Shown here piece by piece: positions 27,393 to 30,300 of a stretch of 48,937 bases of DNA (within the stretch, counting starts at the first letter, position 1; each line of letters begins with the position of its first letter). Origin of the DNA: an uncultured Anaerolineae bacterium. GTDB lineage: Bacteria > Chloroflexota > Anaerolineae > VGOG01. The position numbers were made by a program, and so were the translations under genes. The notes under the pieces are model-generated. The model was not told the origin of the DNA. It made no database searches and worked only from the letters and a program-made list of their open reading frames with translations. The DNA is taken from positions 1 through 48,937 of the forward strand of contig CAYWWC010000002.1 in assembly GCA_964461615.1 (NCBI GenBank), given 5' to 3'.

Positions 27393-30300
27393 GTGGCAGA
27401 ACCGCGTGTTCAAATTGATCGTAATACGTTAGAGAATATCCTCCATCTCGAACGAGCGGCAAGTGGTGTAAACGGGTCGTCTGCAACAGACGGAATCCGT
27501 GCGCTGAATGGTATTTACGAACAGTACCCACTGTTAATGCGTGAAGCCGAACGTATGATCCCATACGAAGTTGGCTTTAACGATGCTGCCCGTGATACCA
27601 AAACCCCTCTTGGTGCATATTTCTGGAAGTCGTTTAATCGCCAGCTTGAGACGATAGCGTTTCAGGGTGCAAAAATGGCTGCGGCTATTGGCGATTCTTT
27701 TGCTGGCGAATTTGTTTCCAATATGGAAAATGCTGGTATTCGTGAGCCTGGAGATTTATATCGTCAGGAAAAATACCAAGACATTTCAAATCCTCGTACC
27801 ACACTGGAATATTTATATTCTGGTGGTGGTGCCATGCTTGCTGATCTTCCTCTTTTCCTTGCACTTTCTGCTGGTTCTGGCGGTGTTCTTAGCGGAGTTG
27901 GGCTTGGAATGCGCGGAGCCGCCGTAGCAAAACTATTCTCTCGCGGGAAAGATATTAGCCGATTTGGTGGATTTATGCAACGGCTGACATCCTCAGCATT
28001 GCGCGATTCATCAACCTTCATGATTCATCATTCGATCATGTCGGGTCATCCTGATCCCAAAGCAATTCGTTCTGGTATGATGTTTGGTGTTGGTGGTGAA
28101 CTGGGCCGTACTCTCGGCATGACGATGGCAATGAATATGAAGCCGTCTGCTGGGGCTATTGTTGCTGGTGTGGCTGGTTCTGTCGCCGCCGGTCTTTCTT
28201 TTGCTACTGATTCATATATCCACCAACAGGATGCTGCAGAAGATTATTGGAAAACCCTTCCGTTTGAACGTCGTCCCGCCAAGATGGAAACCGATTGGAA
28301 TGATATTGCCGCATCCTTTATTTTAGGTGCAGGATTTCATTCTCTTCATGCCGCAAAAGACTTTAAGAATTTGAAATACTGGCTCGAAACCACCAAGCCA
28401 ATTCGTGACGCGAAGCGTGATTTTGACAAGTTTTTGCGTGGGATTGAATCGGGCAAGGTCGGTTGGGATGAGATGCTTGGGCTGAAAGCTGACCCAAAGG
28501 GGACGGGTCGCGAGCAGCCGCTGCCGGATGCAGATATTACTCCAGAAATGATTGCGGGTGGTTTTTTCCGTGGTGCTGCTTTTGGAGAATCCAGAGCTAC
28601 AGGACTTCCCAAAAAACTGTCAGGAACCGATTGGCGGAAACGAATTGATCTTGCAATTCGCAAGTTGTCGCCAATTCTGGACGGACGTGATAAAGTCCAG
28701 ATTCGGGAAGAGTTGATTGAATCGTTTGATCGTCTCTATAGTAAAGATACAACGATTGACAAGGAGAATTACGAGTCTGCTGTTCTTCAAGCCGCTGGTC
28801 GTAATATCGAAGCGTTTGTAGAGAACTTGGGGACAGAAACGCTTTTCGGATATTATAAAGCGACCAAACATCTCCGTGAAATGCTGGACAAAAAAGGCGT
28901 TAATAAGAAGGCGTTGGCACGAATTGATCAACTGCATGGGGAAGGCGCAACCGCTGTTGATGTTCTTGACGCTTACTTGATTGCTAGTCATTTACTCAGT
29001 AATCAAACCGATTTCGCGGAATTGCTTGCGCGGCGTGCAAATTTATCGAATCGGAAAAAGAAGACATTTAATTTCCGTGATCAGAAAATTGAGTCGATGG
29101 AAGATGCCCAGAGTATCGAACAACATATTGTCGAAAAGATGGGGCAAGCTCGCGAAAACAATGATCAAAATGCTATCCGAGAAAATCAACGTGCGCTTTC
29201 CGAACTTCAAGGTATTATGGAACAAATGGAGTCGGAGCGTATTGTTGAGCCCGGAGGTGTTGTTGAGCGGGGGACTGAACCAAGAGTCAGTGAAAGCAGA
29301 CAAGGAGGTAGGTCTGAATCCGGTATTAGTGAATTGTCAGAACCACACGGTGTTTCTCCCCGTGAGATGTCCGGTTTCAAAGCTCATGTTGCACGCGAAG
29401 CGGAAGTTATTCGCGAAACTGGTTATAAAGCCGAGGAACCAGCTCGCCCAGAAGCAGCGGATACAAGAAAAGGCCCGCGACAAGAGGGTGAGATCATCGA
29501 GGGACGAGGTGGGCCGAGAGAGCAAGCAATTGTTGAAGAAGGTGGTCCACAACCTATCGGTGATGCTGCGGTAGCAGAAAGCAGGACAAAAGCATCAGAC
29601 CTGAAAATTGTCACAACAAAAACGGGACAAAAACAATATCGGTATAAAGGCAGAATTGTCAGCAAAGACCGATATATGGAATTGTCTCGCAAAGTTTCCG
29701 GTGAACGTAAGGGCGAGCTTGGTACTACGAAAATGCCGCCGGGGGAGCTTCCAACAGAACCGGTAGTTCGTGGCGATCTGATGGATATTTTCGGGACCGC
29801 TGTTGTTCATGGACAAGGCGTTGTGGTTGTCCCAATCAATCAAGGGCATGTCCACGGTGCTGGCTTGGCGAAGATGTTTAAGGATTACATGGCTAATCCT
29901 CACGTCATGCCAATTTACGTTAAAAAGCATTGGCGTGATGAAGCCAATATTGATTTGATGAAGGATGGTTTGCGCCGCCTGATCAATCGTGCTCGATCTG
30001 AACCGGACGTACAGTTTTATCTGCCCCTGATGGGTCTTGGACATGGTCAAGGTGATCCAAAGGTGATTCTTCCGTTGTTGAAACAAACGATGGAGGCGTC
30101 TCCTAATATTCATATTGTTATTCCTACCCGTGAAGCTCTTCTGAAAACGCCGAAAGGAACGACGCGTACAGATAAGACACCCGAGCTGTTGGCTCAGATT
30201 GAAGAGTTCTTCGGTATTAAAGAGGGGCTCCCTGATGAAGCCGGTATCGTTAGAGAACAGCCTGAAGGTAAGGTTGTTTCAGAAGAAGGCATCATTCGTG

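Follow-up and report, generated by a model that had tools for sequence, protein, structure and literature searches.

A protein of 3,481 residues encoded by contig CAYWWC010000002.1 of an uncultured Anaerolineae bacterium (assembly GCA_964461615.1) contains, as judged from sequence models, a family profile and a predicted fold, a genuine and minimal macrodomain of the DarG/TARG1 class (residues 788–940). The window analysed here is the whole contig of 48,937 nucleotides, which lies in a 4.5-Mb genome bin that is 88.6% complete. Its matching ends and its gene content identify it as a complete tailed phage genome, in which the gene for the giant protein closes a plus-strand block holding the terminase, portal and capsid genes. 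On the strength of sequence, modelling and analogy, we put at about one in two the probability that this macrodomain would carry out DNA de-ADP-ribosylation of an anti-DarT type as the phage enters the cell. The coordinates of all features are collected in Table 1.

Identity and active site of the macrodomain

A preliminary description of this DNA, made from its letters alone, had read a DarG/TARG1-like macrodomain from motifs in a somewhat shorter segment of the gene. Translation of that segment reproduces every motif quoted, and profile and structure searches of the region have returned a macro fold and DarG matches, with the residues of hydrolysis retained, so that the class assignment is borne out. 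When the domain alone was the query, its direct matches in the PDB, PADLOC and NCBIfam were DarG models only: in the PDB, the macrodomains of Thermus aquaticus DarG (TaqDarG; 5m31, E 0.0012) and Mycobacterium tuberculosis DarG (5m3i, E 0.036) and the Thermosipho DarTG fusion (7omu, E 0.19); in PADLOC, the DarG model (E 5.6e-6); and in NCBIfam, antitoxin_DarG (NF048014; E 9.3e-8, profile positions 78–169 of 338). The NCBIfam score is 31.7 bits against a cut-off of 250 bits for a DarG equivalog, and the domain is flanked by acidic linkers, with no C-terminal DarT-binding domain. Among phage families it matches phrog_335 (labelled 'phosphatase') at E 7.7e-13. As a side observation, antitoxin_DarG is alone in the NCBIfam table of this domain, and seven of its ten close relatives also match NF049995, 'A1S_2505 family phage non-structural protein, N-terminal'.

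A HMMER scan of 1.84 billion representative proteins yielded 132 proteins at E <= 1e-3, 39 of them at E <= 1e-10, and the macrodomain was aligned with 52 small relatives. The profile of these 53 members finds 5m3i at 2.3e-44, 5m31 at 1.7e-41, the DarTG fusion at 6e-37 and human TARG1 at 2.4e-19. An AlphaFold2 model built from the same alignment has a predicted local distance difference test (pLDDT) score of 88.8 and a predicted template modelling score of 0.84. Foldseek ranks 5m3e, 7omu, 5m3i and 5m31 first for this model (E 1e-6 to 4e-6, the lowest being 1.2e-6), with TARG1 after them, and in VIA-align DarG gives a Z of 13.4 (root-mean-square deviation 2.5 Å over 119 residues, 26% identity), with which the Z of 13.0 for TARG1 counts as tied under the rule of the tool. 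The top 50 VIA-align rows are all macrodomains or designs built on them (Z 10.4–13.4). Since the alignment behind it included DarG-like proteins, the model is not independent of the sequence evidence. In sequence, profile and fold alike, the best match is DarG (T. aquaticus 5M31/5M3E and M. tuberculosis 5M3I), at 25–26% identity over 118–119 aligned residues.

Equivalent residues were assigned from pairwise and profile alignments, with residue roles taken from the text of Jankevicius et al. (2016; PMC5179494); the PDB chains carry ten extra N-terminal residues, an offset inferred from 'TKKHW' = T79–W83. DarG and the present domain share the catalytic Lys, the Asn, the His-Trp pair and the Gly loop. 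The sequence VKKHW aligns with TKKHW of TaqDarG, and the Lys ahead of HW, which had been described as kept, falls on K80; likewise G881, G883 and G885 align with G117, G119 and G121. According to the passages cited, K80 of TaqDarG is catalytic, and the K80A protein has no activity and gives no rescue from DarT toxicity; removal of ADP-ribose from DNA is impaired or abolished in K80A, N22A and G119E, N22A having the second strongest effect on activity; and W83, at whose position TARG1 has Ala, is proposed to stack on thymine (PMC5179494). The equivalents of K844 and N816 are invariant in the ten close relatives and at least 90% conserved among the 53 members, and those of the Gly loop show full or at least 90% conservation among the relatives. 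Other positions have changed: K29 of TaqDarG, where K29E is reported as inhibitory (PMC5179494), is Ala here, Q34 is Met and T20 is Pro.

The preliminary description had sensed that the stretch between the FK and K.HW motifs is shorter than usual. Indeed only 14 residues separate K830 from K844, against 44 between K36 and K80 of TaqDarG, so that about 30 residues, a helix and a hairpin, are gone between the FK helix and the catalytic strand. The sheet has five strands in the AlphaFold2 model as against the six described for DarG in the text of Jankevicius et al. (PMC5179494), where none of the listed ADP-ribose contacts falls in the deleted stretch (TaqDarG residues 37–78). The domain is also longer than DarG in two places. 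An insert of seven or eight residues follows the GDL motif, and a C-terminal extension, consisting of a helix and a conserved P-x-G-x-x-R-T-D tail, carries the domain past the end first assigned to it to about residue 940 (nucleotide 30212). This helix aligns with the last helix of the alphavirus and YmdB macrodomains (VIA-align). Taken together, the conserved residues and the model suggest that the hydrolase is probably active.

Relatives of the domain and the nature of the giant protein

The 131 other representatives found in the scan comprise 41 proteins of more than 1,500 residues, 25 of 261–1,500 and 65 of at most 260. A quick maximum-likelihood tree with a midpoint root was made from 138 domain rows; six entries that are copies or pieces of the window protein (P0001, P0140–P0144) were excluded, and of the 147 left two had no match and seven covered fewer than 110 profile positions. 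A branch with a support of 98 in the Shimodaira–Hasegawa-like approximate likelihood ratio test (SH-aLRT) divides 35 rows, including four DarGs adjoining DarT, from 103 rows that hold all 50 giants and the window domain. This phylogeny places the macrodomain in a clade whose members are mostly parts of giant phage proteins and which is separate from the DarT-adjacent DarGs. It is the shortest form of the clade and clusters (support 93) with three stand-alone proteins of 156–193 residues that have the same short form and keep all the motifs (P0013–P0015). One other small relative, P0096, has lost both the GxGxG loop and the K..W motif. When the giant protein was compared by BLASTP with 47 fetched giants, 45 gave one high-scoring segment pair each, all within residues 741–1102; thus only the cassette is common to the giants.

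Many of these giants are crAss-like virion polymerases proper. Among 41 IMG/VR stretches that matched a search pattern, five were confirmed as relatives, and all five lie in open reading frames (ORFs) of 2,852 to 4,049 residues or more, with G[SG]DFD[IVF]DK 850–1,100 residues upstream of the macro motifs. A 58-sequence alignment of cores of this macro-bearing type, the five IMG/VR ones included, matches the phi14:2 gp66 virion RNA polymerase (RNAP; 6VR4) at 1e-49. This link required the profile, as phmmer searches of the PDB with two single giants (P0008 and P0004) found no match. One core has tblastn matches in 107 phage records, mostly crAss-like, two of them being Cellulophaga phage (host C. 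baltica #14). A motif G.DFD[IVFW]D is carried by 17 of the 41 representative giants. P0054, a macro-bearing giant without the motif, has a match at 1.4e-83 to a PHROG labelled 'virion structural protein'. On three macro-bearing giants (P0004, P0006 and P0008), PHROGs matched the macro parts only. Sequence comparison therefore indicates that the macro clade recurs in virion giants, true crAss-like virion RNAPs among them.

Its presence on them is nevertheless sporadic. In the best 80 crAss-like core loci, surveyed with 6 kb on each side, the macro module occurs once, in the contig from which the survey started, so that it is an occasional accessory of crAss-like polymerases. Four crAss-like cores 51–54% identical to the macro-bearing one (L014–L017, compared with L012/L013) have no macro module within 6 kb; thus the module has been gained or lost between fairly close relatives. 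As for other contents of the macro-bearing relatives, the stretch after the macrodomain of P0004 and P0006 looks SLOG/DprA-like by eye, precomputed Pfam matches to the helicase-type families AAA_30 and AAA_19 are listed for P0007, P0011 and P0012, and a precomputed Amidase_2 match is listed for P0010.

In the giant protein of the window, the macrodomain is the sole domain recognisable by family searches. It forms, with a basic segment before it, a cassette of about 215 residues in the N-terminal third of the protein (at 22% of its length), with a copy of an acidic linker on either side. The two linker copies, a duplication of about 46 residues (...REQ...GP.PIGDA.V.E...), align locally with a score of 80 against 36.6 +/- 6.0 for shuffled sequences, a score reached by none of 1000 shuffles; at the DNA level they share just a 29-nt stretch at 76% identity. 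The duplication could be a scar of insertion or duplication, or a recombination joint. The basic segment, which sits between the upstream linker and the macrodomain and is missing from the stand-alone relatives, may serve as an arm that binds nucleic acid. Nearly identical copies of the giant protein occur on three contigs. Members of its cluster are identical or differ by one or two residues outside the macro region, and therefore natural variation is uninformative about selection.

The preliminary description had called the giant protein a putative virion RNAP. For the protein itself this stays a candidate identity; the macro clade is found in true crAss-like virion RNAP homologues elsewhere, so that the general idea was sound. 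Residues 1000–3481 retrieved only their own cluster among 7,987 scored candidates, residues 1300–2500 found no homologue among 7,995 candidates of 660–2,102 residues, and an IMG/VR scan for homologues of the remainder of the giant confirmed none of 16 pattern matches. One candidate block (RFPTRGK...LPEGRGN...DADYDAD) resembles the double-psi barrel consensus of crAss-like virion RNAPs (RIPTQGK...LP..G.GN...GSDFDIDK): DYDAD occupies residues 1830–1834, and RFPT precedes it by 41 residues, against 40 in the family. A rough estimate gives about 0.2 chance occurrences of such a bare DxDxD in a protein of 3,481 residues. We take the same block to resemble also the catalytic double-psi barrel of bacterial beta-prime.

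Profile comparisons of this region gave weak or non-significant values. The hhalign probability is 1.3% against the 58-sequence core profile (E 0.039, 52 columns; non-significant) and 19.7% against a 21-sequence profile (P 0.0012; weak). With a narrow hidden Markov model (HMM) of the catalytic block, the giant ORF took second rank among 22,628 frames from the bin, at a non-significant E of 0.2; the top match is a chance partial RIPT match in an unrelated 303-residue frame and was discarded. The rpoC gene of the host did not surface, which indicates that this HMM is no general RNAP detector. Among named clusters the ESM Atlas puts nearest a phage PF05183 RNA-dependent RNA polymerase (RdRP) cluster, at 0.78 and 0.83, below the trust line of 0.9, and an AlphaFold2 prediction of residues 1400–2100 without an alignment was unusable (pLDDT 36.5). 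Judged from these sequence comparisons, the odds that the giant protein is a polymerase are roughly even. A more elaborate idea, which we regard as doubtful, is that it may be an extremely divergent two-barrel virion RNAP using DYDAD, of a lineage far outside Crassvirales and possibly with a Chloroflexota host; the cassette would then be an on-board eraser of ADP-ribosylated template at the transcribing or ejecting complex, and the linkers would be recombination joints by which cassettes move between unrelated virion giants.

Proposed function and its alternatives

DarT-type toxins hit single-stranded DNA soon after infection. In the scheme favored here, the giant protein would be made late, packed in the capsid and ejected with the DNA, as are crAss-like gp66 and N4 gp50. 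The tethered macrodomain would hydrolyse ADP-ribose off nucleic-acid bases, the best candidate substrate being thymidine-linked ADP-ribose placed on single-stranded DNA by defence toxins of the DarT2 type, and both the phage genome and the machine carried by the giant protein would be protected ahead of any phage gene expression. Packaging, ejection, hydrolase activity, the DNA substrate and the DarT target are what we infer. The idea of delivery comes from the place of the gene at the end of the virion block, from the size of the protein, from its hydrophobic Gly-rich segments and from analogy with gp66 and with polyvalent proteins as treated in the text of PMC5512222. The parts cited of the gp66 paper report a virion protein that passes into the cell and depends on its DFDID motif (bioRxiv 10.1101/2020.03.07.982082).

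A precedent for the proposed activity exists. AdfM, a phage DarG2-like macrodomain described in 2026, removes DarT2 marks and rescues phage growth, and its authors state in the text cited that no earlier macrodomain anti-DarT factor had been reported (PMC13309987). Other phage counter-measures are different: AdfB of ICP1 and AdfA act differently from AdfM in the description available (PMC11481870), and T4-like phages are described as using NADAR enzymes against DarTG1 (PMC11825919). The presumed target occurs in the lineage of the putative host, although it was not found in this bin: of 301 genomes sampled from the bacterial class to which the bin belongs, 42 have DarT (PF14487), a result that also validates the search, and of nine genomes of its family one does. 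At all four of the best DarT loci of the class, an ORF of 359–384 residues with a DarG-type macrodomain lies alongside.

Several points weigh against this scheme. The mechanism is predicted at every step, as is the presence of this giant protein in the virion. DarT has no match in the bin, contig included, or in the one other genome of its genus, and binning is itself weak evidence of host. Outside the macro region the giant protein has no family match, structural or RNAP. Within the macro region, the replacement of K29 and Q34 of TaqDarG by Ala and Met also counts against it. Pfam gave no match for the giant protein or for a 221-residue piece even at E 10; 32 of the 53 aligned members match PF01661 (Macro) and the window member does not. 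This miss reflects a sensitivity limit for a shortened domain and is not evidence against the macro fold; taken with the loss of about 30 residues and one strand, however, the lack of a Pfam Macro match means that activity could be lost or changed. The SH-aLRT split from the DarT-adjacent DarGs implies that substrate specificity may differ, and Iyer et al. (2022; PMC9503650) argue in their text for soluble ADP-ribose derivatives as the main substrates of phage Macro domains.

The best placed alternative, for which we see a modest chance, concerns that specificity: the macrodomain may undo ADP-ribosylation of RNA or protein, with mRNA, tRNA, phage proteins or the giant itself as carriers of the marks that host ADP-ribosyltransferase (ART) defence would set. 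Its position outside the clade of DarT-adjacent DarGs would fit this, as would the tied fold match of TARG1, a hydrolase of protein glutamate-linked ADP-ribose, and reversible RNA ADP-ribosylation by macrodomains is described in the literature, as far as the parts cited go (PMC11833690, PMC13036486). A DNA substrate is nevertheless favored by the direct PDB, PADLOC and NCBIfam matches, which are all DarG, and by W847, the counterpart of the proposed thymine stacker, which is kept here while TARG1 has Ala (PMC5179494, in its text).

Somewhat less probable is that the domain hydrolyses or sequesters soluble molecules derived from nicotinamide adenine dinucleotide (NAD), such as Thoeris-type signals, O-acetyl-ADP-ribose or ADP-ribose-1''-phosphate, and would thereby blunt signalling immunity on entry. 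Such a role is proposed for most phage Macro, NADAR and SLOG proteins, which are often packaged, in the text of Iyer et al. (PMC9503650); the label of phrog_335 and a fold match to Poa1p (Z 10.7) agree with it. However, the nearest relatives in sequence and fold are the DNA-acting DarG macrodomains rather than the MacroD, Poa1p or ThsA types, and the catalytic Lys of TARG1 and DarG is conserved.

We think it unlikely that the deletion has crippled the domain into an inactive remnant, or into a structural or binding module such as an ADP-ribose reader or a packaging spacer. Besides the missing residues, the five predicted strands instead of six and the Pfam miss, the small relative without its GxGxG loop and K..W motif illustrates such a fate; but the short form is common to three stand-alone proteins with all motifs intact, conservation of the catalytic Lys, the Asn and the Gly loop is complete or reaches at least 90%, and the AlphaFold2 model is confident. 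Very improbable is a role as antidote to or regulator of a co-delivered phage ART (toxin–immunity or Alt-like), since, although ART domains are frequent in polyvalent proteins and N4-like virion RNAPs in the account of PMC5512222, family scans of the giant protein and Pfam scans of 20 other ORFs detected neither an ART nor a sirtuin, NADAR or other NAD/ADP-ribose family; a very divergent ART could escape such scans.

Phage genome, precedents and meaning

The first 55 nt of the contig are identical to the last 55, which indicates that the genome is circularly closed and complete at 48,882 bp. A replication and recombination block on the opposite strand encodes RusA, a DnaC-like loader, an AAA_24 protein, a Gp157-like protein, DUF932 and DUF2303. 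No tRNA gene was found in the phage genome, and no integrase or other lysogeny gene was seen among the ORFs scanned. Most of the remaining ORFs have no family, and PHROGs gave no match on ten further ones. The terminase is about 21–24% identical to those of Mu-like and N4-like phages and the major head protein about 25% identical to the capsids of four phages. Among 50,697 phage records, tblastn and megablast found no match to the portal, to the giant gene, to its core or to the macrodomain, or likewise to a macro stretch of P0006. In terms of sequence the phage is thus far from anything cultured and not crAss-like. Two late ORFs just upstream of the giant gene (19888–24162, 1,424 residues, and 25659–27383, 574 residues) have no Pfam or PHROG match. 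The terminase ORF as listed overlaps the preceding 274-residue ORF (10206–11030) by 250 nt, and its PHROG match begins only at residue 136, so that the true start may be further downstream.

Table 1. Features of the phage genome and of the giant protein; positions are those of the window, with the strand in brackets
Feature	Residues	Position	Basis or remark
End repeat, 55 nt		1..55 (.) = 48883-48937	Circular assembly overlap
GH108 lysin		5706-6413	
Large terminase subunit		10780..12684 (+)	phrog_38, E 3e-56
Portal protein		12681..14756 (+)	phrog_156, E 3.2e-33
Major head protein		16658..17923 (+)	phrog_1328, E 1.3e-23; tblastn to 4 phage capsid genes
Giant ORF, GTG start, stop-free	3,481 residues	27393..37838 (+)	Last gene of co-directional late (virion) block
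Gly-rich hydrophobic segment	147-173	27831..27911 (+)	Kyte-Doolittle scan
Gly-rich hydrophobic segment	252-273	28146-28211	Kyte-Doolittle scan
Upstream acidic linker copy	687-733	29451..29591 (+)	Local alignment
Basic segment	734-787 (54 residues)	29592..29753 (+)	13 Lys/Arg, 6 Asp/Glu by count
Predicted macrodomain, DarG/TARG1 class, shortened, with C-terminal helix and 'RTD' tail	788-940	29754..30212 (+)	Sequence models, profile, fold
Segment of the preliminary description	791-911	29763..30125 (+)	Translation
Equivalent of TaqDarG G7-N8-L9	G794-D795-L796		Alignment
Equivalent of TaqDarG N22	N816	29838..29840 (+)	Alignment
Equivalents of TaqDarG G28, G30	G822, G824		Alignment
Catalytic-strand motif	K844-K-H-W847	29922..29933 (+)	K844 = TaqDarG K80 / TARG1 K84; H846 = H82; W847 = W83
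GLGHGQG loop	881-887	30033..30053 (+)	= ADP-ribose-gripping loop G117-G119-G121 of TaqDarG
Downstream acidic linker copy	949-994	30237..30374 (+)	Local alignment
Block RFPTRGK...LPEGRGN...DADYDAD	1788-1838	32754..32906 (+)	Candidate; resembles crAss-like catalytic barrel
Gly-rich hydrophobic segment	3313-3331	37329-37385	Kyte-Doolittle scan

The window domain differs from DarG not only in the missing helix and hairpin, the insert after GDL and the extra C-terminal helix with its 'RTD' tail, but also in its setting: it has neither a DarT-binding C-terminal domain nor a DarT neighbour, it lies inside a phage protein of 3,481 residues, and it falls in a separate clade. Human TARG1/OARD1 (4J5S), which shares the catalytic Lys mechanism, is only 16% identical and has Ala where DarG and the window domain have Trp. 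Closest in the proposed function is AdfM of the PhiKZ gp104 family of chimalliviruses, likened here by its description: it too is a phage-encoded DarG2-like macrodomain, and it strips from DNA the DarT2 marks that the window domain is proposed to remove (PMC13309987). According to the same text, AdfM is free-standing, made late and imported into the phage nucleus, whereas the window domain is part of a giant late protein, with which it presumably reaches the cell pre-made.

The macro cassettes of crAss-like virion RNAPs (gp66 family, 6VR4) belong to the same macro clade and likewise sit in a giant late protein. They stand near the C-terminus, 850–1,100 residues after a DFDID motif, unlike the internal cassette of the window, which precedes DYDAD by about 1,000 residues; moreover, the window giant has no significant similarity to gp66-type cores, and its genome measures 49 kb as against about 100 kb. 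As a late-block product of very large size, it agrees with the polyvalent proteins (Iyer et al., 2017; PMC5512222) and with the predicted packaged Macro, NADAR and Nudix proteins (PMC9503650), which are large late proteins with a conflict-related enzyme domain and predicted host entry. In the text of these two papers, figures and supplements aside, Macro is not listed among the domains of polyvalent proteins and no fusion with a virion RNAP is described. Literature searches, covering text outside figures and supplements, found no paper on a macrodomain fused into a virion RNAP or a crAss-like giant protein. Packaging of Macro proteins by phages is already in print as a prediction in the text of Iyer et al. 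(2022; PMC9503650), and therefore the advance is incremental unless activity is tested. What appears new, as judged by sequence, is a DarG-type macro cassette that is internal and shortened and stands in a phage that is not crAss-like.

If the proposed anti-DarT role is true, a pre-folded hydrolase arriving with the genome would beat a defence that may be too fast for a newly expressed anti-defence gene. AdfM, a free-standing protein, is the only experimentally shown macrodomain anti-DarT factor as of 2026 in the account of PMC13309987; the cassette of the window and its relatives on crAss-like polymerases would extend this precedent to a delivered, modular form, and the idea of the polyvalent protein would be tied to a defined biochemical target. 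In addition, the shortened domain would represent a natural minimal DarG-type macrodomain, of use in probing the role of the absent helix and hairpin.

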